Shown piece by piece: positions 1,226-34,734 of a stretch of DNA of 34,734 nucleotides; the first letter of the stretch is position 1, and each line of letters opens with the position of its first letter. Position numbers and translations under genes: made by a program. The stretch lies in IMG/VR virus record IMGVR_UViG_3300038701_001263, one strand, 5' to 3'. This DNA comes from a virus. The notes under the pieces are model-generated. The model was not told the origin of the DNA, made no database searches, and saw only the letters and a program-made list of their open reading frames with translations.

Positions 1226-1663
1226 ATGGTTGTTATCATTCCGCCCAGTGACGAATACCGGGAAAAACTGCTCGCGACGCGGCGCAATCCGCGTGGGCGC
1301 AAGCTGATTACCGCCGACGAGGTTGAGCTTGCGAAACGAATTGAACATCGGCGGCTGAGCCAGGGCGTGACACAGCAGGAGATCGCCGATCTGCTTGAGG
1401 TGCATCTCAACCAGGCGAACAAATATCTGCGCGGTCACAACAAATTGTCGATCAGCAAATTCGTAAAGCTGTGCGCGTTTTTGCAGGTCGCGCCGAACGA
1501 GCTGCTGTGGGGCTTGGACGACGTTAAGACGCCGGAGTTGCGCGATAGCCCAAAACGTATGCTGGCGATGGCGCAGATGTTCAACGCGATCGAGGACCAA
1601 GTGAAGCGCGATGCGATCTATTCGATGATCGCGCGCGTGTATCGCGGGGAGGTCGAACTATGA
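1226..1663 (+). CDS. XRE-family helix-turn-helix transcriptional regulator
   Basis: HTH_3-type segment LSQGVTQQEIADLLEVHLNQANKYLRGHNKLSISKFVKLCAFLQVAPNELL. ATGA-coupled to the primase-helicase gene. Confidence 0.8.
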   Translation: MVVIIPPSDEYREKLLATRRNPRGRKLITADEVELAKRIEHRRLSQGVTQQEIADLLEVHLNQANKYLRGHNKLSISKFVKLCAFLQVAPNELLWGLDDVKTPELRDSPKRMLAMAQMFNAIEDQVKRDAIYSMIARVYRGEVEL

Positions 1664-3927
1664 GTTTGGCCGGGGATTTTCTTTGCGCGCTGTGGGCCAA
1701 TGGCCTGCCCGACGACATGGCGATCGAGCTGCGTTTGATCGCTTCGCCGACGCGATCCAAATGGTTCGAGGCGGCCCACCTGCCCATGCTGCCCGATCCG
1801 GTGCGGCAGGAAGGGACGGCGACGTTTAGCGTCTGTGCGGGCGCTGTGGGGCTTCCTGGCGCTATGTCTGATGCTGATGCGGCGCTGGCTCCGGCATGCT
1901 GGATCGACATTGACTTGATTGACAGCACCTTAAAAAAATCAGGCGCGGTGCGCGATGTTACGATGGGCCAAATCCGCGAAGCGGCGGATGGTGTGGCGGA
2001 CGCATTGCGCGGCCTGCCGTTTCCGCCAAGCGCGATCGTCTATTCGGGCGGCGGCGTGCATGCGTACTGGCGGTTTGCTGAGCCTGATCGGAATTTGGAT
2101 TTAGTCGAGGCGGTGAATGCGCGGCTGGCGACGATCTGCGCCGGGGATGAAGCGGTTCGCAACAGGTCACGCGTCATGCGTCTTCCCGGCTCGATGAACC
2201 GGAAATATGCCGAACCTGTGCAAGCCGAAGTCTTGGGTCGGTTTGACGCTTGGGCGCGCGATTACGAGCTTTCGGATCTGGACGACATGACGGCGGACTA
2301 TTCGCGCCGTGACGTGGTTGTGGCGGTCGCTGAGGCGCAGGAAGCGATCGTTGCGGCCAGTGGTGCCGACTTGGCGGAACTGGCGTCTGCGGCCGTTGTG
2401 GCGACTCCTGGCGGCATGATGGACGGGCGCGGCGATTGGGCCGAGTGGGAAGCGGCGGCGCGGGCTGGCGACAATTGGAATTCGAACTGCTTGAAGCTGG
2501 TCGCGCGGTGGGTGGCGATTGGTTGGAGCAATGCGCAGATTTATGAGCGCGGGATGGCGCTGCGGCTTGAGGGATACAGCGAGGCGGAGACGCGCGCGGA
2601 GTTTGAGTATTTCATACGGTCGGCGCGGTCGAAGGGCTTCGCGCCGGTCGTGGCGGGGCGTCCGCTCGATTACGAGACCTGGCGGGATGATTGGGCGCTG
2701 ATCGAGACGAGCGGGCGGTTTGTGCGCCTGTCGACGCGAACGGAAGTGACCCAGCAGACGTGGCGGCTGACCAATTCGCACCTGTATGCGGTCGAGGTGA
2801 ACGATGCGGGCGAAGAAAAGCGCGTGCCGTTTGCGAAGCGCTGGCTGGCCGATGGCGAGGCGTTCAAATTGCACGATTACGTGATGGCACCAGACGAGCC
2901 GCTGATTACGGCGGGGAACTGCCTCAACCTGTGGCGCGAGTATCGGGCGCGGATCATTGCGGACCAGGGCAACGACCCAGCGACATCGCGCGCGGTGGCT
3001 CGGTGTTGGCAGCTTGTCCTATTTTTGTGCGGCGAGCGTGAGGACGTGGCGCTCAACGTTTTGAATTGGATCGGGCGCGGGTTGTTCCATCCGTCGGAGC
3101 GGGCGAAGTTTGCGCTATTCATTATTAGCGATCTGAAGGGCGCGGGAAAGTCGCTGCTCGGCAATCTGGTCGGCGAGCTGTACGGCCACGAGGCGAGCGT
3201 ATCGCTCGGTGGTATCGACGGGCTGATCGGGCCGTTTCCCGGCGACGTGCTGACGGGCAAGGCGTTTGTGTGCGTGCATGAAACCAGCGACCGGGGGGAT
3301 GCTGGGCGGTTTGGCGCGATGGAGCGGTTGAAAAGCATGATCACCGAGCCGGCGTTAAGTTTGAACCGTAAGGGCGTGTCGCAGATTAGCGTCGATAACT
3401 TTTGTCGGTTCTTGTTCCTGTCGAACCACGAGGACGGGCTGGTTGTTGACGACAACGAGCGTCGGCTTGCCGTGGTCAACTGCGGGGCGACTGAGGCGCT
3501 GCCGCCGGGTTTCTATGACGACTTTGTTGACGAGTGCTTCACGGCGCAGGGGCTGGCTGATCTCGCGCGTTGGCTTCGGGATGAGCACTGCGCCGAGTTG
3601 CCCAATCGGGCGTGGCGGCTCGATATGGACACGGTGCAGGACAGCCTGACGAGCGACTGGGCGGCGACGCTGAACGAGCGGGTGGCCGATGCGTATATGT
3701 TTGGGGTGAAGGTCGCGGCGGGCGATATGCAGGCCGTGTGCAACCAGATCGCAGGGACGAGACTGCCGAACCACGTACTGAAAAACGAGCTGAAGCGCGC
3801 GGGATGGAAGAATGATCGGGGCAAGCGTGACGGCAAGGTTAGGCGGTTTTACACCAATAACGCGAAAAAAAGCGATTGGGCTGATGATTTTGTCACAAAG
3901 GTCGGCGAGACGGATGTCTTGTTTTAA
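1660..3927 (+). CDS. Bifunctional replication protein: AEP-type primase/prim-pol domain fused to P4/D5-type SF3 helicase
   Basis: N-terminal motifs VYSGGGVHAYWRF and RVMRLPGSMNRK. C-terminal Walker A DLKGAGKS, Walker B FVCVHE, and a downstream LSNH block. 755 aa. Confidence 0.88.
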   Translation: MSLAGDFLCALWANGLPDDMAIELRLIASPTRSKWFEAAHLPMLPDPVRQEGTATFSVCAGAVGLPGAMSDADAALAPACWIDIDLIDSTLKKSGAVRDVTMGQIREAADGVADALRGLPFPPSAIVYSGGGVHAYWRFAEPDRNLDLVEAVNARLATICAGDEAVRNRSRVMRLPGSMNRKYAEPVQAEVLGRFDAWARDYELSDLDDMTADYSRRDVVVAVAEAQEAIVAASGADLAELASAAVVATPGGMMDGRGDWAEWEAAARAGDNWNSNCLKLVARWVAIGWSNAQIYERGMALRLEGYSEAETRAEFEYFIRSARSKGFAPVVAGRPLDYETWRDDWALIETSGRFVRLSTRTEVTQQTWRLTNSHLYAVEVNDAGEEKRVPFAKRWLADGEAFKLHDYVMAPDEPLITAGNCLNLWREYRARIIADQGNDPATSRAVARCWQLVLFLCGEREDVALNVLNWIGRGLFHPSERAKFALFIISDLKGAGKSLLGNLVGELYGHEASVSLGGIDGLIGPFPGDVLTGKAFVCVHETSDRGDAGRFGAMERLKSMITEPALSLNRKGVSQISVDNFCRFLFLSNHEDGLVVDDNERRLAVVNCGATEALPPGFYDDFVDECFTAQGLADLARWLRDEHCAELPNRAWRLDMDTVQDSLTSDWAATLNERVADAYMFGVKVAAGDMQAVCNQIAGTRLPNHVLKNELKRAGWKNDRGKRDGKVRRFYTNNAKKSDWADDFVTKVGETDVLF

Positions 3928-5636: not shown

Positions 5637-5777
5637 GTGGTCGCTCAAGCCGTCGCCGAGGCATTTCAGCATAACGAAACCATGTGGCACTGCGCGCCCT
5701 GCAACGTGTTTTGGCGCTTCAAGAAAGATTGCGGACGCTGCGGCAAGCCCTGCAAGGCGGTTGGTGTAAATGACTGA
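5637..5777 (+). CDS. Zinc-ribbon-like micro-protein (46 aa from GTG 5637, or 31 aa from ATG 5682)
   Basis: ..MWHCAPCNVFWRFKKDCGRCGKPCKAVGVND carries CxxC-x9-CxxC. GAGG lies 7 nt before the GTG. The stop overlaps the methyltransferase start by 8 nt. Too short for the ORF track. Confidence 0.35.
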   Translation: MVAQAVAEAFQHNETMWHCAPCNVFWRFKKDCGRCGKPCKAVGVND

Positions 5778-6960
5778 CGCCTTCACCCTGCATCACGGCG
5801 ATTGTTTAGACGTCCTGCGCGGCATGCCCGACGCGAGCGTTGACGCGGTAGTGACCGATCCGCCGTATGGCCTCAGTTTCATGGGCAAGCGTTGGGATTA
5901 CGACGTTCCGACCGTCGCGATCTGGTCCGAATGCTTGCGCGTGCTGAAACCGGGCGGGCATCTTTTAAGCTTCGGCGGCTCGCGCACCTATCACCGCATG
6001 GCCGTAAACGTCGAAGACGCCGGCTTTGAAATCCGCGATCAGGTCATGTGGGTCTACGGATCGGGCTTTCCGAAGTCTCACAACATCAGTAAGGCGATTG
6101 ACAAGATGGCCGGGGCTGAGCGTGAGGTCCAACAATGGGACGGCTGGGGATCCGCACTCAAGCCCGCGCATGAGCCGATTGTCATGGCGCGCAAGCCTTT
6201 GGGCGAAAAGACCCTTGCCGCGAACGTGCTGAAGCATGGCACGGGCGGGATCAATGTTGATGGGTGCCGGGTTGCGACCAGTGACAGCCTTGGCGGGGGC
6301 ATGGTTAGCAAGGGGAGACCGAAGGCGCCGGAAGGTTGGGACCGCCCGTGGATGCACGACCCTGAAGTGACTGAGGCGAAAAAGGCAGAGAGCGCCGAAA
6401 AGGTTAAGCATGCCGAGGCATTGGGCCGTTTCCCCGCGAACCTGATCCACGACGGCAGCGATGAAGTGCTGGCGGGTTTTCCTCAAGCCAAGAGCGGCGG
6501 CGGTCACTCCGGCAAGGAGCCGAGCAACAAGACTGCAAATGCTTATGGCGACTATGGACGCAAAGAGTTCGAGCCACACAAGGACACAGGCTCAGCCGCC
6601 CGTTTCTTCTACTGCGCCAAGGCCAGCAAGCGCGACCGCGATGAAGGGCTTGAGGCGTTCGCAGAACAAGAGTTTGTGCAATGGCAGACCGGCAACGGCG
6701 CAAGCGGCAAGCCTAGCAGCATGAGCGAGGGGCGAGACACGCAACGGCGCAATGTCCACCCGACCGTAAAGCCGACCGACTTGATGGCCTATTTGATCCG
6801 CTTGGTCACACCGCCCGGCGGCGTCGTGCTGGATCCGTTCGCCGGCAGCGGCAGCACCGGCAAAGCGGCGATCCGCGAGGGGTTCCAATTCATCGGGATT
6901 GAGCGCGAGGCCGAATATCTAGCTATCGCGCGCGCACGAATTGAGGCCGCTCATGTCTGA
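5770..6960 (+). CDS. DNA methyltransferase, beta-class N6-adenine/N4-cytosine (N6_N4_Mtase fold)
   Basis: Motif IV VVTDPPYG lies N-terminal to motif I FAGSGSTG. GRFPANLIHD and HPTVKP blocks are also present. 396 aa with a long central variable region. Confidence 0.9.
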   Translation: MTDAFTLHHGDCLDVLRGMPDASVDAVVTDPPYGLSFMGKRWDYDVPTVAIWSECLRVLKPGGHLLSFGGSRTYHRMAVNVEDAGFEIRDQVMWVYGSGFPKSHNISKAIDKMAGAEREVQQWDGWGSALKPAHEPIVMARKPLGEKTLAANVLKHGTGGINVDGCRVATSDSLGGGMVSKGRPKAPEGWDRPWMHDPEVTEAKKAESAEKVKHAEALGRFPANLIHDGSDEVLAGFPQAKSGGGHSGKEPSNKTANAYGDYGRKEFEPHKDTGSAARFFYCAKASKRDRDEGLEAFAEQEFVQWQTGNGASGKPSSMSEGRDTQRRNVHPTVKPTDLMAYLIRLVTPPGGVVLDPFAGSGSTGKAAIREGFQFIGIEREAEYLAIARARIEAAHV

Positions 6961-25784: not shown

Positions 25785-27392
25785 ATGTATCGCCGCAATA
25801 GAAACGCGAGGCTCTTAAGCGGTGGCCTCGTAGGTGTTCCGCCGGGATACGGTGATGAGTATTGGACCGCTACCGCCCCACTCCTCCGAACTCGCGGCTA
25901 CCTCGGGGCGGCTCCTGCTGCTGCTGCGGGAGATGACCATTGGGATGACGTGACGCTGTTGTTGGATGGGTCTAGCCCTACGAACAACCTCAAGTCAGGC
26001 GGGGCGACCGTAACGAACCCAAACTCGGACGTTTCAACAACTACAACAGACCCCGGCAGTCACCCCTATGCGACGGACTTCCTGTCGTTCAACTCGGACG
26101 TAGCCAAAAAACTTACGATTACCAATGACGCCAACGTGGCTTTTGGAAACGATGACTTTACGATTGAGGCATGGATTTACATCGACGCTAGTGAGTCCAT
26201 CACCACTTCAGCTAGCACTTGGCCGGTGCTTCTTGATGCTCGTTCCACGAGCAACGACTCCTTTATTCTGTACATACAGAATACTGGAAGTGGGCCAAAG
26301 CTAGTCCAGAACTTGAATGGTGACAGGATAATCGGCACCACTTCTCTTTCAGTGTCTACTTGGTATCACGTCGCCCTAACCGTCGAAAACAACATTGCGA
26401 GGATTTTCCTTGATGGCACTCAGGAGGGCAGTAGCTGGGACAGTACCACCAACAGTTTTACACCAGCGACAAATATCGAGCTAGGCTTTAGGTCTTATAC
26501 CTCCGCAGCCATCAGTCGTTTCCACGGTTACATGACCGACATCCGCATCACCAAAGGCGTCGCCCGGTACACCGGACCCTTCGACCCGCCAGACGCTAGT
26601 TTCCCTACGAATGCTCCAAGCGGTTCTTCAGGCACACCCGGAGATGAGTATTGGAATGACGTGGATCTCCTAATTAGTGGTTCCGGCGTCACGGCTGGTA
26701 GCTCCGTCACTGACCTATCAACCGAAGGGAATGACTTCACCAGCGTCTCGACCGCCAGCCTGAGTACGACTGGCCCATATGGAACCACTCAAGGCGTCCT
26801 CGATTTCGATGGTACGAATGATTGGCTCCGAGAAACAACGTCTAGCGGTGACTTTAAGTTTGGAACAGACGATTTCACTATTGAGTTCTGGGCGAAGAGC
26901 GACATCACAAACTCTAACTACCCGGGCCTAATAGACCACGACCTGGCTGCGGGTACTTCGACGGATGACTACTTCGTCGTTCACTTGAGCAACAGTGAAT
27001 ATAGTTTTTGGGCGGGAGCAGGAACCAAATATCTCTCAGGGACGGTCGGCACTGTAACGGGCTGGAACCATGTCGCTATTACTCGGCAGGGAACGTCGGG
27101 CGAAATGTTTATCAACGGGTCGTCTACCAGTACCACGAGTAGTTTACCCTCCAACATGACAAGCGGCATCGCTCGCCAGCTCTACATTGGGCGGCAATGG
27201 TGGGACGACCAGCCAACCTTCCGCTGCTTTAACGGCAAGATGGCAGACGTTCGCATCACCCGTGGCGTCGCTCGGGACATCGCGGCGGACTGGACCGCTG
27301 GGCTGTATGATGATCCGCCTCTCCAGAACGTCCCGGCGGAGGCTGGCGGCATGCTCACCCTCTACGACCGCTATCTGGACAACCTCTCCTAA
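25785..27392 (+). CDS. Double LamG/concanavalin-A-like lectin-domain protein, putative receptor-binding protein (cassette B, gene 3)
   Basis: Two Laminin_G_3-type units: DDFTIEAWIY..WYHVALT..FHGYMTDIRITKGVARY and DDFTIEFWAK..WNHVAIT..FNGKMADVRITRGVAR. Sampled lines give GC of about 45-50%. Confidence 0.75.
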   Translation: MYRRNRNARLLSGGLVGVPPGYGDEYWTATAPLLRTRGYLGAAPAAAAGDDHWDDVTLLLDGSSPTNNLKSGGATVTNPNSDVSTTTTDPGSHPYATDFLSFNSDVAKKLTITNDANVAFGNDDFTIEAWIYIDASESITTSASTWPVLLDARSTSNDSFILYIQNTGSGPKLVQNLNGDRIIGTTSLSVSTWYHVALTVENNIARIFLDGTQEGSSWDSTTNSFTPATNIELGFRSYTSAAISRFHGYMTDIRITKGVARYTGPFDPPDASFPTNAPSGSSGTPGDEYWNDVDLLISGSGVTAGSSVTDLSTEGNDFTSVSTASLSTTGPYGTTQGVLDFDGTNDWLRETTSSGDFKFGTDDFTIEFWAKSDITNSNYPGLIDHDLAAGTSTDDYFVVHLSNSEYSFWAGAGTKYLSGTVGTVTGWNHVAITRQGTSGEMFINGSSTSTTSSLPSNMTSGIARQLYIGRQWWDDQPTFRCFNGKMADVRITRGVARDIAADWTAGLYDDPPLQNVPAEAGGMLTLYDRYLDNLS

Positions 27393-27455
27393 CACGGACG
27401 ACACCGCCCACGCCCAGCCAAAGACAAAAATACCAAGGACAAACAGGTAAAAACA

Positions 27456-27701
27456 ATGACCGACGACGAAATCAAAAAACTGGCGCGCGAGACAGTCGCC
27501 GAGACGCTGCGGTCACTTGGCCTTGATCCGTCGTCGCCTGACACTGTTGCCGACATCCACGACCTCAAGGGCCTGCTGGGCGCGTGGAGAGGCGCTAAGC
27601 GCACCATCGGCCAAACGGTCACGCGCATGATCACCGTCGCCATACTCGGCGCTCTGGCGGTTGGTGCGGCAATGCAAATTCGAGGCGGAGGCGGCGAATA
27701 A
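27456..27701 (+). CDS. Single-TM lysis-cassette protein (holin/antiholin-like, putative)
   Basis: 81 aa. Soluble N-terminus and one C-terminal TM (MITVAILGALAVGAAM). TAATG-coupled to the endolysin gene. Confidence 0.4.
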   Translation: MTDDEIKKLARETVAETLRSLGLDPSSPDTVADIHDLKGLLGAWRGAKRTIGQTVTRMITVAILGALAVGAAMQIRGGGGE

Positions 27702-28525
27702 TGGTCATGTTGAACCGACACAAGGTTTGTTCCGCTTACTGGCGCGAGGCTGCGCACTACGGCGGGCAGATCAACCGCGACCTGCCGCTCTACGTCATCG
27801 CGCACGACACGGCGGGACGCGACGCCGACAGCACCGTCAACTTCATCGCCAACGGCTCGCGTAAGGCCAGTTATCACGTCATCATCAGCCGCGACGGCGT
27901 CATGACGCAGATGGTCCCGCTGGATCGTCAGGCCTACCACGCCGGCGTCTCGCAGCATCCGACAAAGCCGTGGCTCAAAGGGATGAACCGCTGTTCAATC
28001 GGCGTCGCCTTCGATAACCCCGGCGAACTGTCGCGCACGACTGACGGCACTTATCGCGCTTGGTTTGGGTCGTCTTGGTCGGCAAGTGAGGTCGAGCGCG
28101 GACACCGCAAAGGTCGCGACACCTGGCATCGCCCCTATACGCCGCAGCAGCTTCGCGCGTTTGAAAAGCTCGTGCTGGCCCTCGATGCAGAATATGGCCT
28201 CGGCGGCGTTCTCAGCCATTACGACATCGCGCCAGATCGCAAAGTCGACACCTCGCCGACCCTCGACCCACTGCTGCGCGCGTTGACGCAACAGGTCGAA
28301 GACAAAGCCGAAGACATGCCAATCGGCGACCGGGCGATCGTGGCCACCGTCGGCGGTCTGAACCTGCGGCGCGGCCCCAGCATCAACGCCGAGGTCATTG
28401 AGACGATGCCCTGGAATACGGGCCTGACCGTCGAGCCGCCTATCCAGTCCAGCGGCTACGTCTTCGTCTCGACCGATGACGGGCAATCCGGCTGGGCGCA
28501 TTCTCACTACTTACAAGGAATTTGA
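27701..28525 (+). CDS. Endolysin: N-acetylmuramoyl-L-alanine amidase (Amidase_2/PGRP type) with C-terminal SH3b-like domain
   Basis: YVIAHDTAG, ASYHVIISRDG, AYHAGVS and HYDIAPDRKVDTSP. C-terminal VGGLNLRRGPSINAEVIETMPWNTGLTVE..GWAHSHYL. Confidence 0.88.
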   Translation: MVMLNRHKVCSAYWREAAHYGGQINRDLPLYVIAHDTAGRDADSTVNFIANGSRKASYHVIISRDGVMTQMVPLDRQAYHAGVSQHPTKPWLKGMNRCSIGVAFDNPGELSRTTDGTYRAWFGSSWSASEVERGHRKGRDTWHRPYTPQQLRAFEKLVLALDAEYGLGGVLSHYDIAPDRKVDTSPTLDPLLRALTQQVEDKAEDMPIGDRAIVATVGGLNLRRGPSINAEVIETMPWNTGLTVEPPIQSSGYVFVSTDDGQSGWAHSHYLQGI

Positions 28526-28953: not shown

Positions 28954-29080
28954 CGCCCCGAGCCTGGCGGCGGCGTGCGTGGTTTTCGAGCCGATCACCG
29001 CGAGCCAGCAAGACACGACCGAAACGATCCGGCAGATCGTGCAGCACAACCGCGTAAGGAATTTGATCTGTGGCGATTAA
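28868..29080 (+). CDS. o-spanin lipoprotein (overlapped architecture)
   Basis: MHWKLVKLSLLIATISLTSC has a lipobox LTS|C. 70 aa. Out of frame with, and overlapping, the last 86 nt of the i-spanin gene. Confidence 0.65.
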   Translation: MHWKLVKLSLLIATISLTSCASRENSEISAPSLAAACVVFEPITASQQDTTETIRQIVQHNRVRNLICGD

Positions 29081-29279
29081 GACGGATTGGGACGGGTTTG
29101 AAGATGGTCCGATTTCGGACGACTTTGACGACGTGCCGCCCGAAATCATTCAAGCTGAGACGGTCGGGAAGATGGTCGAGGCGGCTGCCGTCATGGGCTT
29201 GAACCTCGAAATCCGCCTGAAAATCGGCGGTGAAGTGTGCAAAATCACGGTCGAGAACGACCCAGACGTGGCACACTGA
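29070..29279 (+). CDS. Small acidic hypothetical protein, 69 aa
   Basis: GTG 29070 lies 9 nt after AAGGA. 16 Asp/Glu versus 5 Lys/Arg. Last gene of the late operon, next to the putative attP. Confidence 0.5.
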   Translation: MAIKTDWDGFEDGPISDDFDDVPPEIIQAETVGKMVEAAAVMGLNLEIRLKIGGEVCKITVENDPDVAH

Positions 29280-29281
29280 CC

Positions 29282-29306
29282 AAAAAAAGACCCCGCCGAA
29301 GCGAGG
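29282..29306 (-). terminator. Rho-independent terminator for the minus-strand lysogeny operon
   Basis: On the minus strand: CCUCGC-UUCG-GCGGGG hairpin (one G-U pair), followed by UCUUUUUUU (plus-strand A7 at 29282-29288). Confidence 0.6.
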
Positions 29307-29330
29307 CCAAAGTCCATGAGGTCTAACAAT

Positions 29331-29389
29331 TACCGAACCGGCCCCATGTAAGTTGCTGTTTTCTCTAACTTTTTTACGGTTTTTCGGTA
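29331..29389. promoter_or_regulatory. Putative attP region / recombinase or repressor sites (inverted TACCGAA .. TTCGGTA)
   Basis: Perfect 7-bp inverted repeat at 29331-29337 and 29383-29389 in the AT-rich gap where the late and lysogeny operons converge. Confidence 0.3.
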
Positions 29390-29400
29390 GCGCTTGGTAT

Positions 29401-29658
29401 TTAGTGCGCGATTTCGGACAAGTCTTTGTCCAGAAGCTCGTCAGCCAAAATGTCAATTGCCTGCACCTGGCGCAGTTTCATCCGGCTTAAAGCCTGTGCG
29501 ATTTCTATGATCGCCTGCTGGTCGAGCGTAACGTCAGGAAAATGGATTTCAAAAATCCCGTGTTCCTCGTGCATGATTGCCAGGTCGGCCGCGTTCGCAA
29601 TTGCGTGCAGCCGGTGGTCAGTGCGGCGGGGAAAGTCGACAAGATTTTTATCAGTCAC
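29401..29658 (-). CDS. Small acidic hypothetical protein, 85 aa, downstream of the integrase gene
   Basis: GTG start preceded by GGAGG (10-nt spacing). No recognisable domain, and not basic as typical excisionases are. Confidence 0.6.
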   Translation of the reverse strand: MTDKNLVDFPRRTDHRLHAIANAADLAIMHEEHGIFEIHFPDVTLDQQAIIEIAQALSRMKLRQVQAIDILADELLDKDLSEIAH

Positions 29659-29704
29659 AGTTTTTAATCCTCCGTAATTAGTGATGTTGGCACGTTACAA
29701 ATGT

Positions 29705-30976
29705 TCACACTTTGTTTACAAGCCCTAAAGCGTGGTCGGGACGGAAAACAGCGTAAGTTTTTTCAATCTGCTCGGCGCTGTTTCCGGTGATCTTTCCGAT
29801 GACCCAAGGCGAAAAACCTTCGGCCGCAGCCCAGGTCGCAAATGACCTGCGGAAAGCGTGGCTGTGAATGACCGGCGCAAGTTCGCGCATCCGGTCGTTT
29901 TCTGATTTCGACATCGCCTTGCGAAGACTTTCAATGATCGTGTCGAAGTTAACGCGCTGCCAAAGCACAAACGGCGATCCGTCGCGCTCGGCAAAAGCCC
30001 GCAACATAATCGGCATCAATGCGTCAGAAATCGGAACGTGCGGGCGGCGCTTTGTGGAATAGCTCTGACCCACGACGGCAAAATTGATCGTGCGGCGGTC
30101 CAGATCAACGCGATCCCATCGCAGGTCAGCGTAAAACGACCGTCGCCCGCCCGTGTATCGGACCATGTGCAAATAGATTTCCAAGTCGCTCAGACGCCCC
30201 GTGCGGTTGGATCCGCGCGGCATGTCCGCCGCAGCGCCCAAAACGTCGGCCCAGTCCTGTTTGGTCAGGACGAGGCGTTGCACTTCGGGTTCCGCGACGC
30301 GCTGCCAGGTTGGCGGCTTTGCGTCGATCACACCGTCGCGCGCGGCTTGGTTGATGATCGCGTTAAACGTCTTGGCCTCGTTGTTTCGCGTCGAGGTCTT
30401 CACGCGCGGCCGCGTCGCCTCGTACACGGCTTGGTCGTCACGAGTGAATGAACTGACCGGTTTGTCGTGGGTAAAACAAGCCAGCAATTTGGTGCAGACG
30501 GACACGCGGCTCTTATGGCCGGGACGGTCACGGCGCTTAGCCAGGTATTGGTCGACAACCTGCCCGAACGTGGCGCTTGCCTCAACGCCCTCGGCCCATC
30601 CCATTTCGATCATTTTGCGCGGCACTTTCTGCAGCGCGAGGTCGTGGTCTTTTTCGCTCAGACCGACGCGCCGCGTCCGCCCGTCGATCTTGACGTGGAG
30701 CTGATAGCTGTTCTTCGACTCGCACCAAACGACGCGCGGCTGCTGGTCCTGCACGGTCTTTTCGAGCCGACGCAGCCTTTCGCGCGCTAGCTTCGGAGTG
30801 GCCGACTTGATCGAGTCGCGCGCGTTGACCGTTTCGCCGTCAATCTGATCGAGCCAGACGACGCGATGCGAACCGTCGTCGCGCACGACGCGAAAGCCTA
30901 CGGCGTGCCGGGTGGGTTTCTTAAAGTTCAAGGTCTTCAAAGTCTTCCTCCATTCTGCGCGTCTCAAATCGCGCAT
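29705..30976 (-). CDS. int: Tyrosine integrase
   Basis: RYTGGRRSF (Arg I), HAFRRSFATW (H-x-x-R) and EKTYAVF (catalytic Tyr). The start is uncertain: ATG 30976 overlaps the repressor gene by 56 nt, and an in-frame TTG at 30940 follows GGAGG by 6 nt. Confidence 0.9.
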   Translation of the reverse strand: MRDLRRAEWRKTLKTLNFKKPTRHAVGFRVVRDDGSHRVVWLDQIDGETVNARDSIKSATPKLARERLRRLEKTVQDQQPRVVWCESKNSYQLHVKIDGRTRRVGLSEKDHDLALQKVPRKMIEMGWAEGVEASATFGQVVDQYLAKRRDRPGHKSRVSVCTKLLACFTHDKPVSSFTRDDQAVYEATRPRVKTSTRNNEAKTFNAIINQAARDGVIDAKPPTWQRVAEPEVQRLVLTKQDWADVLGAAADMPRGSNRTGRLSDLEIYLHMVRYTGGRRSFYADLRWDRVDLDRRTINFAVVGQSYSTKRRPHVPISDALMPIMLRAFAERDGSPFVLWQRVNFDTIIESLRKAMSKSENDRMRELAPVIHSHAFRRSFATWAAAEGFSPWVIGKITGNSAEQIEKTYAVFRPDHALGLVNKV

Positions 30977-31322
30977 TTGCGGCCAGCACGTCGTCGAGCA
31001 TGGCCTTGTCCACCGGCATGCGGCAGTTCAGGACATACCAGTCCGGCCGACCCAAAATCGGTGAAAAAGTTACGTTGCTGCGCGCGAGATTAACGGCCGT
31101 TTGGTCGTAAGCCTCTGGGCAAAGCTCGCGCGGTTTTATCTCAAGGAATTCAGCCAAGACGGCCAGCCGACGGCCTTTCGGAATGTGCGAACCACGAACC
31201 CAGCCGCTTATGGACTGCTGCGCGAGGCCGGTTTGCCGGGCCATTTCTTGTTGCGTTAGCTCGCGATCCTGCATGATCGCTTTAAGGCGACGGCCGAAAT
31301 CGGCGTATCTGTCAGAAGCCAT
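30921..31322 (-). CDS. CI-like XRE-family repressor (no S24 peptidase domain)
   Basis: HTH_3 segment LTQQEMARQTGLAQQSISGWVRGSHIPKGRRLAVLAEFLEI. Adjacent to int on the minus strand. Confidence 0.75.
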   Translation of the reverse strand: MASDRYADFGRRLKAIMQDRELTQQEMARQTGLAQQSISGWVRGSHIPKGRRLAVLAEFLEIKPRELCPEAYDQTAVNLARSNVTFSPILGRPDWYVLNCRMPVDKAMLDDVLAANARFETRRMEEDFEDLEL

Positions 31323-31336
31323 GATTTGATGATCCT

Positions 31337-31362
31337 TATGGTTTTATGCGATATGGTTTTAT
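31337..31362. promoter_or_regulatory. Two 11-bp direct repeats TATGGTTTTAT in the leader of the repressor gene
   Basis: Copies at 31337-31347 and 31352-31362, immediately upstream (minus sense) of the AAGGA RBS of the CI-like gene. Confidence 0.4.
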
Positions 31363-31389
31363 CCCCATTTTTGACCTTTATTTAATTTG

Positions 31390-31416
31390 TACCGATAAAT
31401 CAAGCGTTATACCGAT
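31390..31416. promoter_or_regulatory. Two TACCGAT (rc ATCGGTA) sites 20 bp apart; candidate operators
   Basis: Sites at 31390-31396 and 31410-31416, overlapping a plus-strand TTGACC (31371) -N17- GATAAA promoter-like element. Confidence 0.35.
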
Positions 31417-31440
31417 CAGTCTGCGCGTGTGCGCGTAATG

Positions 31441-31842
31441 CTAAAGCGTCACCCCACACGGATAGGCCCACGTAAACGCGCCGACAGCAGCGATTTCGAG
31501 CGACGCGCGCTCGTCTCCGACCAGGTTGGCCGCAACCAAGTATTCGAGAATGAGGTTCGCGGTCGCATCAATGTCGGTCAGGCTGTGCATCTGGCACGCG
31601 ATGGGCTGACCGGACGCCAAGACCGCGCCGATGTTCGCGCCCGAAACAACGCCCGCAATGTACGCCCAGAGCGGGCTGTTTGGGTCCACGCGCTCGCTGT
31701 TCAGAAGCGGCAAGTAAAAGTCTTGCGACGTGTGCTGCTGCATTTCGACGTGGCCCACGTCTTCGGCCCAAGCGTCGCTGTACGCCCCGATCAGGCTTGC
31801 CAGCGCGAAACAGACCGCGCCGATTGTAAGGTGGCGGTTCAT
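31441..31842 (-). CDS. Secreted (Sec signal peptide) small protein, Rap1a/Tai4-like periplasmic immunity-protein pattern (tentative)
   Basis: Signal peptide MNRH-LTIGAVCFALASLIGA-YSDAWA|ED. The mature part has two Cys (IACQM, AYPCG) and a YIAGV motif. ATGA-coupled to the upstream ORF. Confidence 0.4.
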   Translation of the reverse strand: MNRHLTIGAVCFALASLIGAYSDAWAEDVGHVEMQQHTSQDFYLPLLNSERVDPNSPLWAYIAGVVSGANIGAVLASGQPIACQMHSLTDIDATANLILEYLVAANLVGDERASLEIAAVGAFTWAYPCGVTL

Positions 31843-32177
31843 GACTTCGTCTCCTCGCCCATCGCCTTGCGGCGGCGCAGATCCATCGACGCCGAGTAAG
31901 CGCGCTCCATTGCCATCAGCGCGCGTTCTTCGATGATGTTCAGGCCGCGATGGTCGCGCCAGGAACGCAAATCGTCGATGCGGTGTTTCGCTTCGTTCAC
32001 GTGGTAATAGACGCCTCGATAGATGACGCCGCTCAGCATGGGCGTCGCGCCGTCCAGTGGGCCATCCATCGTCGCCTCGACCCGGTCGAGATAGGCCTGA
32101 CGGATCTTGCGTTTGCGATCAGGGAGAGCAACTGCCGTAACGGTAGGTTGTCGGTAGAGTCGAGAATAAGCTTTCAT
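31839..32177 (-). CDS. Hypothetical basic protein, 112 aa, first gene of the minus-strand lysogeny operon
   Basis: ATG 32177 lies 9 nt after GAGG. No recognisable domain. Confidence 0.6.
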   Translation of the reverse strand: MKAYSRLYRQPTVTAVALPDRKRKIRQAYLDRVEATMDGPLDGATPMLSGVIYRGVYYHVNEAKHRIDDLRSWRDHRGLNIIEERALMAMERAYSASMDLRRRKAMGEETKS

Positions 32178-32241
32178 ATGAAAGAACCTCTGTCGAAAAT
32201 TTCAGGTGAAAGAATGTCTGTTCCTCCCTGCTACCAATATT

Positions 32242-32291
32242 TTTTCGGTATTACAAGTGGAATATCAACTTTTCGGTTGATCTCGGTATTT
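32242..32291. promoter_or_regulatory. Operator-like TCGGT(A/T) triplet in the divergent control region, with a candidate early promoter
   Basis: TTTTCGGTA at 32242-32250, TTTTCGGTT at 32270-32278, TCTCGGTA at 32281-32288. TTGATC (32277) -N17- TTATGC reads toward the early operon. Confidence 0.4.
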
Positions 32292-32329
32292 GTCTCGGGT
32301 TATGCGTCGAAAAAATTTTGGAGACAGAC

Positions 32330-32695
32330 ATGGTTTCGGGCCGAGGCGCCAAACAGAAAGGCGACAATTTTGAACGCCAAACAGCAGCTTATCTCAACGA
32401 GCGGATCGACGGACTCGACGCCTACAGGACGCCGCTTTCCGGCATGCGAGGCGGACGCGAGACGGCAACGCCCGATTTGAGCAACACGCCGGGCGTGGCG
32501 ATTGAGTGCAAACGCACCGAAACGATTTCTGCGCGCAAATGGATGAAACAGGCGGTCGAGGCGGCAGGCGACAATGCGCCGGTCGTCATCACGCGCCAGA
32601 ACCGCGACAGCATGGACGACGCTTTGGTCATCATGCGGCTGGGCGATTGGGTCAAGTTTTACGGCGCGGTGGTGGAGGCTGAAAATGCGGCCTGA
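32330..32695 (+). CDS. PD-(D/E)XK Holliday-junction resolvase-like (Hjc-type) protein
   Basis: KGDNFERQTAAYLN .. RTPLSG .. PDL .. VAIECKR layout. ATG 32330 lies 8 nt after GGAG. Confidence 0.55.
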   Translation: MVSGRGAKQKGDNFERQTAAYLNERIDGLDAYRTPLSGMRGGRETATPDLSNTPGVAIECKRTETISARKWMKQAVEAAGDNAPVVITRQNRDSMDDALVIMRLGDWVKFYGAVVEAENAA

Positions 32696-33053
32696 GCGGA
32701 TCACCGAAACGCAAGCGCGACAAATCATTGAGCGAGCAGCAGCCGGCGAGGCGCGCAAGGTCTTGGCTTATGATTTTGGCGTCTCTTACAGCGCGATTTG
32801 CGACGTGCTGGCTGGGAGACGCCACGCCGACGCTGCGCCGGAACTTCTTGATCGGGTCCGCAGACGACCGAGCAAAAAGACAAAGCGCGAGGTGGGCCTG
32901 TACGTCGCTGCGGGCGGCAAAAGGAAAGACGCCGCGCGGATCTTTGGCCTGTGCCGAGCCACTGTGACCAAATACGTGCGCGAGTATCAGGCGCAAGAGA
33001 CGAACAACCATCAAACCAACAAAGGAGAAAACCATGTCCACATTTACTCGTGA
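32685..33053 (+). CDS. DNA-binding protein with two HTH-like segments
   Basis: ARKVLAYDFGVSYSAICDVLAGR and RKDAARIFGLCRATVTKYVREY. ATG 32685 follows GGAGG. Confidence 0.55.
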   Translation: MRPERITETQARQIIERAAAGEARKVLAYDFGVSYSAICDVLAGRRHADAAPELLDRVRRRPSKKTKREVGLYVAAGGKRKDAARIFGLCRATVTKYVREYQAQETNNHQTNKGENHVHIYS

Positions 33054-33270
33054 CCAATCGGTAAGTTCGGAGGCTGATCGGTTTTTCATTCTCAAGCCGT
33101 CGGGCGAGCGTTTGCCGATCGTTGGCGTTTTGAACGAAGACCAAGCCCGCCGCGTCTTTTTCGGCCCCTGGCGCGAAGACGGCGACAAACTCGTCTGCGA
33201 ACGAACCTGCGCCACCTGGTGCTGGGAGCCAGAGGAAGACTGGTCGGAAAGGCATGCTGCAAATGGATAA
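33034..33270 (+). CDS. Hypothetical protein, 78 aa
   Basis: ATG follows AAGGAG. Overlaps both neighbouring genes. Confidence 0.55.
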   Translation: MSTFTRDQSVSSEADRFFILKPSGERLPIVGVLNEDQARRVFFGPWREDGDKLVCERTCATWCWEPEEDWSERHAANG

Positions 33271-34318
33271 TGTTGCGGACTTTGTCACCGATCTGATCGG
33301 CCTCTACGGCTACCAGCCCAAGGAATGGGCGCACCGGCGCGAGCAGTACGTCAGCGCCAGCCAGATCGGGCTGTGTGAGCTGCGTCAGTATTTCATGCGC
33401 CAGCGCGGCGGTGTGGAGCTGGACGCGTCGGCACCGGCCGCCTGGGGCGTCTTTGCGCGTGGCGACACGGGCGAGGAATGGGTCGCGGCGGTTCTAGATC
33501 GCGCGCAGCTTGCCGAGCATGGCGGGCCGAGGCTTGGTTTGGCGTTCTCAGCGACGGGCAAAAATCAGGTCACGATCATTGACGAGGATCGACGCCTCGC
33601 CGCGACGCCGGATGGCATCATGTGGCTTGGGTCTGACCCTGTTTTGCTGGAAATCAAAACCATCGACCCGCGCGTAAGCCTCGATGCGCCCAAGCCGGCG
33701 CACTGGCGGCAGGTCATGTTTGCGATGGCGCTCATGGCGCAGGTGCATTCGATCAAGCCGAAGCGCGCGGTCATCCTGTACGTCGATTGCAGCAATTACG
33801 CCAACGTGACGGCCTTTGACGTGGCCTTCGATCCGATCGAGGGCGGCGCGCTGATCGACCGGGCGCTGCGGATCCATGCGTCAGGGCCGGACGACCTGCA
33901 GGCCGAGGGCGTTCTCGATGGCGGCGGGGAGTGCAAGACCTGCGATTTCGCCGCGCAGTGCAAGGCGTATCAGGTTGAGCGGGTCGAGCGCGCTGCCGCA
34001 ACCGGGCCGATTGATGACGCCACGGCTGGCGAGCTTGACGATCTGGCGGCTCAGCGCGAGGCGGCGACGCAGATGGAGGGCGAAGCCAAGCGCATCAAAG
34101 AGAGCGCGACCAACCAGATCCGCATGCTGATGGACGACCTAGGCATCAGCTACGCCAAGACGCCGGGCTATTCGATCCGGCAGAGCGTGACCAAGGGGCG
34201 CGAGACGTGTGATTGGCGGCAGGCGATCGAGGATGGCGTCGATCTGTCCGATTACGTCAGCGTCGGCAACGGCTATCCGCGCCTGACTATCAGAAAGGCG
34301 AAAGACGATGGCGAATAA
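33254..34318 (+). CDS. Cas4/RecB-like PD-(D/E)XK nuclease with 4-Cys Fe-S cluster motif
   Basis: ATPDGIM and LLEIKT nuclease motifs. N-terminal Cys (IGLCELRQY) plus CKTCDFAAQC (C-x2-C-x5-C). An extra C-terminal extension of about 110 aa. Confidence 0.7.
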   Translation: MLQMDNVADFVTDLIGLYGYQPKEWAHRREQYVSASQIGLCELRQYFMRQRGGVELDASAPAAWGVFARGDTGEEWVAAVLDRAQLAEHGGPRLGLAFSATGKNQVTIIDEDRRLAATPDGIMWLGSDPVLLEIKTIDPRVSLDAPKPAHWRQVMFAMALMAQVHSIKPKRAVILYVDCSNYANVTAFDVAFDPIEGGALIDRALRIHASGPDDLQAEGVLDGGGECKTCDFAAQCKAYQVERVERAAATGPIDDATAGELDDLAAQREAATQMEGEAKRIKESATNQIRMLMDDLGISYAKTPGYSIRQSVTKGRETCDWRQAIEDGVDLSDYVSVGNGYPRLTIRKAKDDGE

Positions 34319-34324
34319 TTATCA
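34304..34324 (+). repeat. 21-bp direct repeat GACGATGGCGAATAATTATCA, first copy (second at 159-179)
   Basis: Exact match. Here the embedded ATG opens only a 9-codon remnant (34308-34337, MANNYQEAA*). Confidence 0.95.
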
Positions 34325-34336
34325 GGAGGCTGCGTG

Positions 34337-34734
34337 ATGCCGATCAAGCTAACGCCTAAACACGTTGGAAACCGAGTGCTGCTGGATAACGGCTGCATTG
34401 GAGTTGTCACGTCGTACTTTAAGACAATGGCGGGGCCGCGTTTTGAGATCGCGTTTGGCATCGTCTCTTTGCCGTACTCAATGGCGATCTACGATGATGA
34501 CGGCATCTTTGAGAGAGACGAGGACCACGAAGAATACAAGCGCGGTAATACGGACCAATGGCGCGTAGTCTTATCGCTCGACGCCCCCAACCCGCTGGAC
34601 GTTGAGGTGCCGGAGTGGTGTCGCCGCATTGTGATATGGGATTTTGGGGGAATGGTGCTTCTAGATACAGATTACTTCAACGAGGCACTGGAGCGGTTCA
34701 AGGAGTCCAAGAACATCATCGGCTGGTCCCCTGC
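34337..34734 (+). CDS. 5' part of the junction-spanning 147-aa hypothetical protein (continues at 1-173)
   Basis: ATG 34337 lies 7 nt after AGGAGG (34324-34329). The frame is open to the window end. Confidence 0.6.
   Translation, partial: MPIKLTPKHVGNRVLLDNGCIGVVTSYFKTMAGPRFEIAFGIVSLPYSMAIYDDDGIFERDEDHEEYKRGNTDQWRVVLSLDAPNPLDVEVPEWCRRIVIWDFGGMVLLDTDYFNEALERFKESKNIIGWSP
34608..34734. repeat. Terminal overlap, right copy (identical to 1-127)
   Basis: Base-for-base identity with the first 127 nt. Confidence 0.97.

Follow-up and report, generated by a model that had tools for sequence, protein, structure and literature searches.

The window, that is the whole stretch of DNA analysed (34,734 nt), is the genome of a temperate podovirus from a marine setting, assembled as a circle. 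Two genes lie on its minus strand between a divergent intergenic region and a repressor-like gene: ORF112, and downstream of it a gene for a 133-aa precursor, here called the Rap1a-like gene. They are joined by an ATGA overlap, in which the start codon of the second gene overlaps the stop codon of the first. An earlier note on this DNA had described the pair, its overlap and its position on the strand of the repressor, and these observations are confirmed (Table 1). Downstream stand the HTH_3 gene and an integrase gene, and on the other side a PDDEXK_15/RusA-like gene is transcribed divergently. The 3' end of the HTH_3 gene overlaps the integrase start by 56 nt, and the two genes adjoin each other in relatives too, as a matter of synteny. 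A blastn search of positions 29000-34734 against cultured phages gave no match, and no relatives turned up in 185,579 species genomes, scanned once with the family patterns and once with the portal protein.

Table 1. Features in and around the two-gene locus, in window coordinates
Feature	Position	Strand	Basis or remark
Phage endolysin, Amidase_2 zinc amidase	27701-28525		
Tyrosine integrase, 423 aa	29705-30976	(-)	Pfam Phage_integrase 4e-10
HTH_3 (Cro/CI-type) repressor-like protein, 133 aa	30921-31322	(-)	Pfam HTH_3 6.4e-11; PHROG transcriptional repressor/regulator families
AT-rich spacer, 118 nt, Rap1a-like gene to HTH gene	31323-31440		Short direct repeats
Rap1a-like gene, 133-aa precursor	31441-31842	(-)	Stop codon 31441-31443
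Mature domain, 107 aa, acidic, helical	31444-31764	(-)	Motifs W59-x-Y61-I-A-G, S67-G-A-N
Codon of C129	31456-31458	(-)	
Codon of C83	31594-31596	(-)	
Predicted Sec signal peptide, codons 1-26, MNRHLTIGAVCFALASLIGAYSDAWA, cleavage before E27	31765-31842	(-)	Hydropathy, -3/-1 rule
ATGA stop/start overlap, ORF112 / Rap1a-like gene	31839-31842	(-)	Sequence
ORF112, 112 aa	31839-32177	(-)	Lineage-specific
Divergent AT-rich intergenic region, ORF112 (leftward) vs PDDEXK_15 gene (rightward)	32178-32317		
PDDEXK_15 / RusA-like resolvase, first gene of rightward early operon	32318-32695	(+)	Pfam 1.9e-9; phrog_244 5e-22

Putative control elements are found on both sides of the pair. The divergent region contains a leftward promoter-like site (32268 to 32239, promoter scan), an operator-like 22-nt direct repeat (32172-32193 and 32200-32221, and again, inverted, at 32324-32337) and the inverted repeat I3 (32234-32247 / 32308-32321). 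The spacer that separates the HTH gene from the Rap1a-like gene holds the repeat TATGGTTTTAT twice (31337-31362), as well as TACCGAT-containing repeats (31387-31421) of which an inverted copy lies at 32245-32254. No minus-strand terminator is predicted in this spacer, which is possibly a separate promoter and operator for the repressor-integrase pair.

Both genes are real, as the codon changes between relatives demonstrate. In a comparison with the 89%-identical relative L035, ORF112 differs by 25 synonymous and 12 non-synonymous codon changes (dN/dS 0.12) and the 133-aa gene by 34 and 7 (dN/dS 0.05), while ORF112 against L036 shows 19 and 1. The substitutions cluster at third positions of the minus-strand frames, a pattern that marks both ORFs as genuine genes under purifying selection and not as chance ORFs of GC-rich DNA. 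Plus-strand ORFs across the locus (31429-31899 and 31950-32480) were rejected, since the changes sit on minus-strand third positions. A GAGGAG Shine-Dalgarno motif (31851-31856) lies within ORF112, 8 nt before the start of the 133-aa gene, and the ATGA overlap fits translational coupling between ORF112 and the Rap1a-like gene.

The 133-aa protein and its relation to Rap1a

The 133-aa protein is predicted to carry a Sec leader of 26 residues and to be periplasmic. The heuristic features of the leader (R3 and H4 in the n-region, a Kyte-Doolittle hydropathy of 2.5-2.7 in the h-region, A-W-A at -3/-1 before E27) agree with the signal peptide and AWA|ED cleavage site proposed in the earlier note, and a hydrophobic leader is kept in divergent homologues although its sequence differs. 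The mature part has 107 residues, against the roughly 105 of that note, whose count of exactly two cysteines holds for the mature part (C83 and C129) and fails for the precursor, which has a third, C11, within the leader. A lipoprotein reading of this C11 was rejected, as no lipobox precedes it and it lies too early and is not conserved. The pI of the mature protein is 4.1, and the homologues all fall between 4.1 and 4.9. C83 and C129 are invariant in 31/31 aligned homologues, and the residues invariant in the family are C83, D90, T94, E116, P128 and C129.

The family is small, with 18 close and about 20 distant homologues, and comes from phages and metagenomes only; the window family itself is marine and known from metagenomes only. 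A tblastn search of the window protein against cultured phages gave no match, nor did one of its relative P0039 against phages and plasmids. It is P0039 that provides the link to a named family. This relative shares 38% identity with the window protein across 100% of its length (BLASTP 4e-18; family profile 3.6e-33), and it scores 37.0 bits against PF18602, the Rap1a family of Pfam, over the curated gathering threshold of 27.7 bits. Another eleven family members (P0010, P0011, P0014, P0022, P0023, P0027, P0030, P0032, P0033, P0042 and P0043) give sub-threshold PF18602 matches of 12-22 bits, and their alignments are co-linear, running from about profile position 21-28 to 90 and ending at most two residues from the C-terminal Y-P-C cysteine. 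Other Pfam families appear in two family members at most. By sequence comparison, the family of the 133-aa protein thus joins PF18602 transitively. The window protein itself has no match in Pfam (E<=1, E<=10), NCBIfam or PHROGs, and is for this reason filed as a divergent relative and not as a formal Pfam member; the profile similarity that the earlier note anticipated belongs to the relatives. Searches of PDB sequences, with the profiles A1, A4 and A5 and with P0039, Bp4 orf70 and P0023 as single queries, retrieved no Rap1a or Tai4. Antibody light-chain matches of P0023 in the same sequences were set aside as chance.

A first AF2 model, built from an 18-sequence full-length alignment, was unusable (pLDDT 49) and was replaced by one from a 31-sequence alignment of the mature domain, which predicts a compact bundle of four helices (mature residues 14-26, 31-51, 65-78 and 89-100) at pLDDT 89.6 and pTM 0.82. 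C83 falls in the loop after the long helix 57-77 and C129 four residues from the C-terminus, at a spacing of 46. Foldseek against BFVD gave, as the three best matches, two phage proteins named "Rap1a immunity protein domain-containing" and one unnamed entry, with probability 0.96-0.99 and query TM-score 0.49-0.60 at an E of only about 0.06. Against the PDB (E<=10) it gave no Rap or Tai chain, the best E being 3.7.

The same model bears on the idea of a small inner-membrane protein, a holin, antiholin or Imm-type factor held by an uncleaved N-terminal anchor and a second helix at 58-78. The attraction of this idea is the Gly/Ala-rich helix LWAYIAGVVSGANIGAVLA (58-76), which is borderline in hydrophobicity (Kyte-Doolittle 1.6 over 19 residues) and gives weak, chance-level matches to hydrophobic peptides of bacteriocins, pilins and apisimin. 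The helix is less hydrophobic in many homologues (1.0-1.4), where it contains N, T, S, K, Q and H; the invariant cysteines and the Y-P-C terminus would become cytoplasmic; the bundle is compact and confidently modelled, and the Pfam and BFVD links favour Rap1a. We therefore hold a membrane protein to be most improbable.

Rap1a of Serratia marcescens Db10 (also "Tai4a") is the immunity protein to Ssp1, a DL-endopeptidase of a type VI secretion system (T6SS) (PMC3533786, PMC3852654). It is a small, highly acidic protein of five helices with a 26-residue leader (PMC3852654, PMC3533786), and its disulfide C78-C122 ties a cysteine of the alpha2-alpha3 loop to one 44 residues on, in the C-terminal region (PMC3852654). 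The window protein is like it in its 26-residue leader, as predicted here, in being a small, acidic, helical protein and in its cysteine topology, C83-C129 with a spacing of 46 against C78-C122 with 44; it is unlike it in that the model has four helices and not five. The fold of Rap1a is distinct from that of conventional Tai4 (PMC3852654), represented by Rap1b, Rap2a, Rap2b, EcTai4 and StTai4, in which the disulfide runs from alpha2 to alpha5 with a spacing of 60-66 residues (PMC3695027, PMC3533786). Conventional Tai4 proteins are likewise small helical bundles, acidic and dimeric, with a single structural disulfide; they reside in the periplasm and neutralise Tae4 amidases, but their fold is a different one and their cysteine spacing of 60-66 is not the 46 of the window protein; no conventional Tai4 was matched by PDB sequence or fold search. 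The label "Rap1a/Tai4" merges two structurally unrelated families. Of the likeness claimed under this label, the part concerning Rap1a ("Tai4a") is supported through P0039 and BFVD, and the part concerning conventional Tai4 falls with its distinct fold (PMC3852654). The evidence supports the description of the 133-aa protein as an acidic, helical protein with a Sec leader and two cysteines, related to Rap1a.

Homologues in other phages and the upstream neighbour

Proteins with a Rap1a domain or the name "Tai4" are already annotated in phages, among them A0A6J5KWX0 and A0A6J5LJN0 (uncultured Caudovirales), orf70 of Escherichia phage Bp4 (X2KQV6), phrog_11132 and phrog_3870, and 57 phage records contain homologues of Bp4 orf70, for the most part from N4-like Escherichia phages, Gamaleyavirus among them. 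These proteins have the same layout of leader, Gly-rich helix, cysteine, some 44-46 residues and a C-terminal A-Y-P-C. Like the window gene they are phage-borne without an effector, and they are the best structural matches. To them the window family adds divergent marine relatives whose sequence similarity to the Bp4 type is marginal (A4 profile against Bp4 orf70, E 0.004 in a six-sequence search); the carriers of the Bp4 type are lytic coliphages, whereas the window family comes from marine metagenomes. A search by title or abstract found no paper that takes phage-encoded Rap1a or Tai4 proteins as its subject.

The genomic context of the gene varies widely. In the closest relatives on large contigs (77% identical), the Rap1a-like gene stands first, with no upstream partner, and is followed by a C5 methylase gene or a 165-aa ORF. 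Some relatives carry it on its own ahead of the HTH gene and integrase, and across relatives the cargo of the slot may be the C5 methylase, ORFs of 165, 206 or 84 aa, or nothing. Elsewhere, homologues (one of them 57% identical) lie directly after DNA polymerase A in the replication module of lytic T7-like marine podoviruses. Others follow the PDDEXK gene in the rightward early operon, one of them overlapping an early HTH gene by 4 bp, and further homologues are found near terminase genes. In N4-like coliphages, a protein of the same layout is encoded in the early region, with an Imm-like gene a few kb away. The earlier note had taken the orientation of the pair as a sign of expression in the lysogen; as a family property this is not supported, because homologues in other transcription units argue against a lysogeny-specific use.

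The Rap1a-like gene, on sequence searches, recurs in many phages, and its upstream neighbour ORF112 does not. ORF112 is a genuine, lineage-specific gene for a cytoplasmic protein of 112 aa, whose basic character (pI 9.9) and want of a recognised domain were rightly described before, as no match was found in Pfam, PHROGs, NCBIfam or PADLOC. Among 5.8 billion proteins it has only two homologues, both near-identical, and tblastn found none in 34 related loci; in further loci beyond those 34 the upstream gene is different or absent.

These counts weigh on the view that the pair is an obligate two-gene system, in which ORF112 and the secreted protein would cooperate, for example as regulator or chaperone and effector. 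The ATGA overlap, with the ribosome-binding site of the second gene inside the first, and the purifying selection on both genes fit such a system. So does a distant lineage (L009/L010), in which a basic 107-aa gene lies directly upstream with a 4-bp overlap and shows weak similarity to ORF112: the two proteins have in common an N-terminal L[YF]RxPTV motif (BLASTP 0.008), and shuffled sequences give a z of 3.2 for local alignment (32/2000) and 4.3 for semi-global alignment (5/2000). Against it stand the two near-identical homologues as the only ones, the 34 loci without a tblastn match, the 77%-identical relatives that lack an upstream partner, and the loci elsewhere in which the gene is alone or between unrelated genes. 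The cargo module that the earlier note had seen in the pair is thus not borne out as a system, since ORF112 is confined to near-identical relatives and absent from every other locus. A conserved two-gene system is not supported by these comparisons, and we judge obligate cooperation to be very unlikely.

Candidate functions of the exported protein

The explanation that we put first, and to which we give about an even chance, treats the 133-aa gene as a phage accessory ("moron") gene whose product, an orphan inhibitor in the periplasm, would counter an incoming peptidoglycan endopeptidase. Its slot would be a variable cargo site that extends from the divergent early promoter region to the repressor-integrase pair. 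ORF112 would be co-transcribed and probably translationally coupled, and the Rap1a-like protein would act independently of it. Sec would export the product and the 26-residue leader would be removed after AWA, whereupon the 107-aa acidic domain could adopt its fold in the periplasm, a small helical bundle pinned by a C83-C129 disulfide as Serratia Rap1a is by C78-C122. By homology, the most likely mode of action would be that of Rap1a, in which a dimer binds a papain-like (Ssp1/Tae4-type) peptidoglycan DL-endopeptidase as it comes in and blocks its active site sterically; here this would serve as protection for the lysogen or for the infected cell. Unlike Rap1a, the window gene has neither an Ssp1/Tae4 effector beside it nor a T6SS cluster, and its family is carried by temperate and lytic phages. 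Its neighbours are ORF112, the HTH gene, the integrase and the PDDEXK gene, with no Tae4/Ssp1-like effector or T6SS gene near it, and no Tae4 or T6SS family was found in the related loci examined. As no effector gene lies alongside, a Rap1a-like protein here would be a stand-alone ("orphan") immunity factor. Exposure to Tae4/Ssp1-like effectors is conjecture.

The distribution of the homologues also bears on superinfection exclusion or envelope protection, in which the protein, made early in infection and in lysogens, would inhibit the muralytic enzyme of a second incoming phage. T4 offers the functional parallel: Sp (Spackle) is a periplasmic inhibitor of a muralytic enzyme and blocks the gp5 tail lysozyme. 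The likeness to Sp is one of concept; to lambda rexAB/sieB and T4 imm/sp in general it is one of position, as an accessory gene beside an immunity region, and no sequence relationship connects these to the window proteins. Exclusion would account for homologues that lytic phages carry in their early and replication modules, a setting in which lysogenic conversion makes no sense: the 57%-identical one after DNA polymerase A, those in the rightward early operon, and the N4-like coliphage counterpart in the early region near an Imm-like gene. A purely lysogenic-conversion immunity gene does not predict its homologues in the replication modules of lytic T7-like phages, and their presence there counts against the explanation put first. 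On the other side, T6SS effectors are what the only characterised relatives neutralise, Pfam finds no peptidoglycan-hydrolase domain in the tested structural proteins of the window phage, and its endolysin is an Amidase_2 zinc amidase and not papain-like. The protein matches no PADLOC model, and neither window protein matches an exclusion or defence family in PADLOC, Pfam or PHROG. We regard exclusion as unlikely.

The endolysin leads to a last alternative, that of lysis control, in which the protein would act in the periplasm to inhibit either the endolysin of the phage itself or an autolysin of the host, and would delay or prevent premature lysis. A predicted periplasmic protein related to an inhibitor of cell-wall hydrolases would suit this role, and the temperate window-like relatives with the lysis region in view (L001-L004, L013, L014, L019) encode an Amidase_2 endolysin. 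However, the papain-like targets of Rap1a have no structural relationship to Amidase_2, the gene is never within a lysis cassette in the loci examined, and in temperate phages it belongs to the leftward operon with the integrase. Lysis control is accordingly a role to which we assign hardly any weight.

Returning to the orphan inhibitor, a broader form of it can be sketched, which we offer as speculation and consider rather improbable. Rap1a-fold proteins may be a phage-wide class of exported periplasmic inhibitors, made early in infection by temperate and lytic podoviruses (marine T7-like phages and N4-like coliphages), which shield the wall of the infected cell from endopeptidases of T6SS or of competing phages, and which would not be, or not only be, T6SS immunity by lysogenic conversion. 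A small basic cytoplasmic partner (ORF112, the 107-aa protein of L009) would have been recruited in a few lineages.

The present result is a plausible annotation of one accessory gene and its ORFan neighbour, and no new system. If the homology-based reading is true, phages, with abundant marine podoviruses among the carriers, would hand round among marine bacteria a ready-made periplasmic immunity to toxins that degrade the cell wall. Its occurrence in lytic phages of the T7-like and N4-like kinds suggests that this fold has a use during infection, a question that cultured coliphages with an analogous "Tai4" gene make experimentally accessible. The name "Tai4 protein" is the one that some GenBank depositors use for the gene of N4-like coliphages.

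The gene pair and its setting in the phage genome

Bases 1-127 of the window are identical to bases 34608-34734, and this 127-bp terminal overlap means that the window is a circular assembly, and thus holds an entire phage genome of ~34.6 kb. The phage, a temperate podovirus, has an integrase and a portal of the T7 type, and it also encodes a primase, a DNA methyltransferase, a large terminase, a major capsid protein, an Amidase_2/SH3 endolysin and a RecE-like exonuclease. The closest cultured relatives of the portal belong to podoviruses of varied hosts, including Sinorhizobium, Pelagibacter, Methylophilales, Microcystis and Vibrio, and no relatives were found in 185,579 species genomes searched with family patterns and with the portal protein. 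A 535-aa late protein (25785-27392) carries a strong Laminin_G_3/concanavalin-like lectin domain (1.3e-32) and is probably a receptor-binding tail fibre or spike. Further along, a 189-aa ATG ORF (27389-27958, minus strand) overlaps the Amidase_2 endolysin gene (27701-28525, plus strand) over its first 258 nt; it has no family match except a chance-level one to BrxD and is probably spurious.

Coordinates of the gene pair, its neighbours and the similar coliphage genes
Feature	Position	Strand	Remark
Tyrosine integrase	29705-30976	-	downstream of pair, same strand
HTH_3 repressor-like gene	30921-31322	-	downstream of pair, same strand
Rap1a-like gene	31441-31842	-	ORF; 133-aa product
ORF112	31839-32177	-	ORF; basic 112-aa product
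PDDEXK_15/RusA-like gene	32318-32695	+	opens rightward early operon
HTH gene	1226-1663		continues rightward early operon begun at 32318
Primase	1660-3927		continues rightward early operon begun at 32318
Bp4 gene	L038 12806-13135 = KJ135004 62806-63135		108-109-aa exported protein (predicted), early/middle region
Phage PBM-2 gene	L039 2429-2755		108-109-aa Rap1a-like layout, early/middle region

The earlier note had described two minus-strand ORFs overlapping by ATGA, placed between the divergent region and the repressor-like gene in the repressor's orientation, and both the structure and the placing hold. The four shared bases lie at 31839-31842, and GAGGAG (31851-31856) stands within ORF112, 8 nt 5' of the start of the 133-aa gene, an arrangement under which the two genes are probably translationally coupled. 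Since GC-rich DNA yields many spurious ORFs, selection was tested on both. Against the related locus L035, in which ORF112 is 89% identical, codon differences number 25 synonymous and 12 non-synonymous for ORF112 (dN/dS 0.12) and 34 and 7 for the 133-aa gene (dN/dS 0.05); ORF112 differs from that of L036 by 19 synonymous changes and one non-synonymous change. Substitutions in both genes are concentrated at third positions of the minus-strand frames. Because of these ratios and this bias, sequence comparison identifies both as real, expressed-looking genes under selection. Plus-strand ORFs overlapping the pair were rejected, as the third-position differences follow the minus-strand frames. The ORF112 product is a basic, cytoplasmic protein.

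An AT-rich gap of 140 nt separates ORF112 from the PDDEXK_15/RusA-like gene, and leftward transcription of the pair would start from this divergent region, which has a promoter-like site (32268-32239). Around it are found a 22-nt direct repeat, TTTCATATGAAAGAACCTCTGT and TTTCAGGTGAAAGAATGTCTGT (32172-32193 and 32200-32221), with an inverted copy at 32324-32337, and a 14-nt inverted repeat (32234-32247/32308-32321, 93% complementary). These operator-like repeats within 32172-32337 are possible repressor or Cro sites. Repeats also occur (within 31337-31421) in the 118 nt that separate the Rap1a-like gene from the repressor-like gene, namely TATGGTTTTAT twice at 15-nt spacing and two TACCGAT-containing 15-mers at 20-nt spacing. 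One of the 15-mers recurs in inverted form within the divergent region (32245-32254), which suggests that a single regulator may bind both places. The repressor-like and integrase genes overlap by 56 nt (30921-30976) in different frames, a feature shared by the Tara relatives (59 nt in locus L001).

Probable kinship of the 133-aa protein with Rap1a

Residues 1-26 of the 133-aa protein, MNRHLTIGAVCFALASLIGAYSDAWA, form a leader in which a charged n-region precedes a hydrophobic core (Kyte-Doolittle 2.5-2.7), with A-x-A at -3/-1, so that the Sec signal peptide proposed earlier is backed by this heuristic. The mature part is acidic (pI 4.1) and does contain exactly two cysteines, C83 and C129, as had been claimed, but it measures 107 residues instead of about 105; C11 lies within the leader. 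A minority alternative is that the product is a small membrane protein, as residues 58-76 are borderline hydrophobic (Kyte-Doolittle 1.6), but most homologues lie well below this value in the same segment.

A search of 5.8 billion proteins returned 18 homologues, none with an informative source name (one 'hypothetical protein') or a precomputed Pfam domain. A profile search of 1.8 billion representatives and a third search with a broader alignment brought the family to some 40 proteins (118-135 aa), with a common order of a leader, W-x-Y-I-x-G-x-x-x-G-A-N, a cysteine, D-x-x-x-T, L-E and a C-terminal A-Y-P-C. Four residues, C83, E116, P128 and C129, never vary in either alignment; D90 and T94 are likewise constant in the 31-sequence alignment.

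Neither Pfam nor NCBIfam gives a match for the window protein itself. The link to Rap1a, the Serratia marcescens immunity protein, comes through P0039, a homologue of the window protein (38% identity over the full length, 4e-18), which scores 37.0 bits against PF18602 (cut-off 27.7). Eleven more family members match this profile at 12-22 bits, their alignments running from profile position ~21-28 to the last, 90, which falls at or at most 2 residues from the C-terminal cysteine. Any other Pfam family is matched by two members at most. An AF2 model of the mature domain from 31 sequences (pLDDT 89.6, pTM 0.82) folds into four helices (mature residues 14-26, 31-51, 65-78 and 89-100); a shallow first alignment had given no usable model (pLDDT 49). 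In a Foldseek search of BFVD, two of the three best matches were uncultured-phage proteins annotated 'Rap1a immunity protein domain-containing' (best matches at probability 0.96-0.99, TM-score 0.49-0.60, E ~0.06). The PDB yielded no meaningful Foldseek match and no chain of a Rap or Tai protein, and sequence searches of PDB chains gave no Rap1a or Tai4 match; this failure is the main weakness of the assignment.

The fold of Rap1a is distinct from that of the conventional Tai4 proteins (Rap1b, Rap2a, Rap2b, EcTai4, StTai4), and the name 'Tai4a' was proposed for it (Srikannathasan et al. 2013, PMC3852654). In Rap1a the leader comprises 26 residues; the protein has five helices and dimerises mostly through alpha2, and its one disulfide joins C78 (alpha2-alpha3 loop) to C122 (C-terminal region) at a spacing of 44 (PMC3852654). 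The leader of the window protein is also 26 residues long, C83 lies in the loop after a long helix (57-77) and C129 four residues from the end, at a spacing of 46, whereas its model has four helices and not five. In conventional Tai4 the disulfide joins alpha2 to alpha5 at a spacing of 60-66 (PMC3695027, PMC3533786), which does not fit. The window protein is probably a distant kin of Rap1a/Tai4a; it belongs neither to the conventional Tai4 proteins nor, formally, to the Pfam family. Of the Rap1a/Tai4-like identity given earlier, the Rap1a half is supported and the conventional Tai4 half is not.

Neighbours of the gene in relatives

ORF112 has two homologues, 99% and 89% identical, both on short contigs with the same two-gene arrangement. 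By tblastn it is absent from 34 related loci, and further loci have no comparable upstream gene. In the distant lineage L009/L010, which encodes P0039, the Rap1a-like gene is directly preceded by a gene for a basic 107-aa protein, the two overlapping by 4 bp. This 107-aa protein shares an L[YF]RxPTV motif with ORF112 (BLASTP E 0.008; local alignment z 3.2, score reached by 32/2000 shuffles; semi-global z 4.3, 5/2000), and this likeness is suggestive of a remote homologue, insufficient for a conserved pair.

The nearest large contigs, from Tara Oceans, are otherwise syntenic; their Rap1a-like protein is 77% identical and its gene comes first leftward, followed by a C5 DNA methylase (4-bp overlap) or a 165-aa ORF, then the HTH gene and integrase. 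Temperate relatives further removed have the Rap1a-like gene either alone ahead of the HTH gene and integrase (L014, L043) or followed by 206-aa and 84-aa ORFs (L013). With such varied neighbours, the slot is a cargo hot-spot of variable contents. The C5 DNA methyltransferase (PF00145) follows directly, with the 4-bp overlap, in L001, L003, L004 (6399-7655) and L010 (1408-2718), so the same slot holds anti-restriction-type and envelope-type accessory genes in different phages; in the window phage the methyltransferase gene lies elsewhere (5770-6960) and runs into the start of the large terminase gene.

Other homologues have quite different settings. In T7-like lytic podoviruses (L011, L031, L040-42), which carry PhoH, ThyX, RNR, exonuclease or T7 RNA polymerase genes, the gene lies directly 3' of DNA polymerase A, and one such homologue is 57% identical to the window protein. 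It also occurs 3' of a PDDEXK early gene on the same strand (L021, L027-30; in L028 overlapping an early HTH gene by 4 bp) and between the small and large terminase genes (L005-8). The earlier picture of a two-gene, lysogeny-oriented module is not sustained by these relatives, as ORF112 is confined to the 99% and 89% relatives, partners vary elsewhere, and the orientation is not conserved.

Possible targets and the N4-like coliphages

The 133-aa protein would be exported by Sec and cleaved after A26, would form the C83-C129 disulfide in the periplasm, dimerise, and sterically inhibit an incoming papain-like peptidoglycan DL-endopeptidase, as Rap1a does Ssp1. Our best guess is that this enzyme is a T6SS effector of a neighbour, the gene being an orphan immunity gene. 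Orphan genes of this type are an established idea, exemplified by the 'orphan' Rap-like proteins of Cronobacter (PMC3852654). That lytic phages carry the gene among their early or replication genes speaks for a use of the protein in infection as well as in lysogens, and keeps alive a second target, the muralytic protein of a competing phage, against which the product would act as a Spackle-like exclusion factor. No peptidoglycan hydrolase was found by Pfam among the structural proteins of the window phage that were scanned, its endolysin is an Amidase_2 enzyme, and PADLOC models match neither the ORF112 product nor the 133-aa protein.

Rap1a-domain phage proteins are already annotated in UniProt, BFVD and GenBank, and no study of a phage-borne Rap1a/Tai4 protein was found in the literature, judged by titles and abstracts. 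The 133-aa gene is a divergent addition to these known proteins, in a phage cargo slot beside an ORFan. Of most interest is the spread of the Rap1a-like fold across lytic and temperate podoviruses, including N4-like coliphages, which are cultured and hence testable. Their protein has the same layout, orf70 of phage Bp4 comprising a leader, NCVPEG, 44 residues and AYPC, with 14.6 bits against PF18602. Homologues of orf70 stand in 57 records of cultured phages, where some depositors call it 'Tai4 protein', and it corresponds to phrog_11132, 'unknown function'. In Bp4, an Imm-like superinfection-immunity gene (59060-59263) lies ~3.5 kb from orf70.
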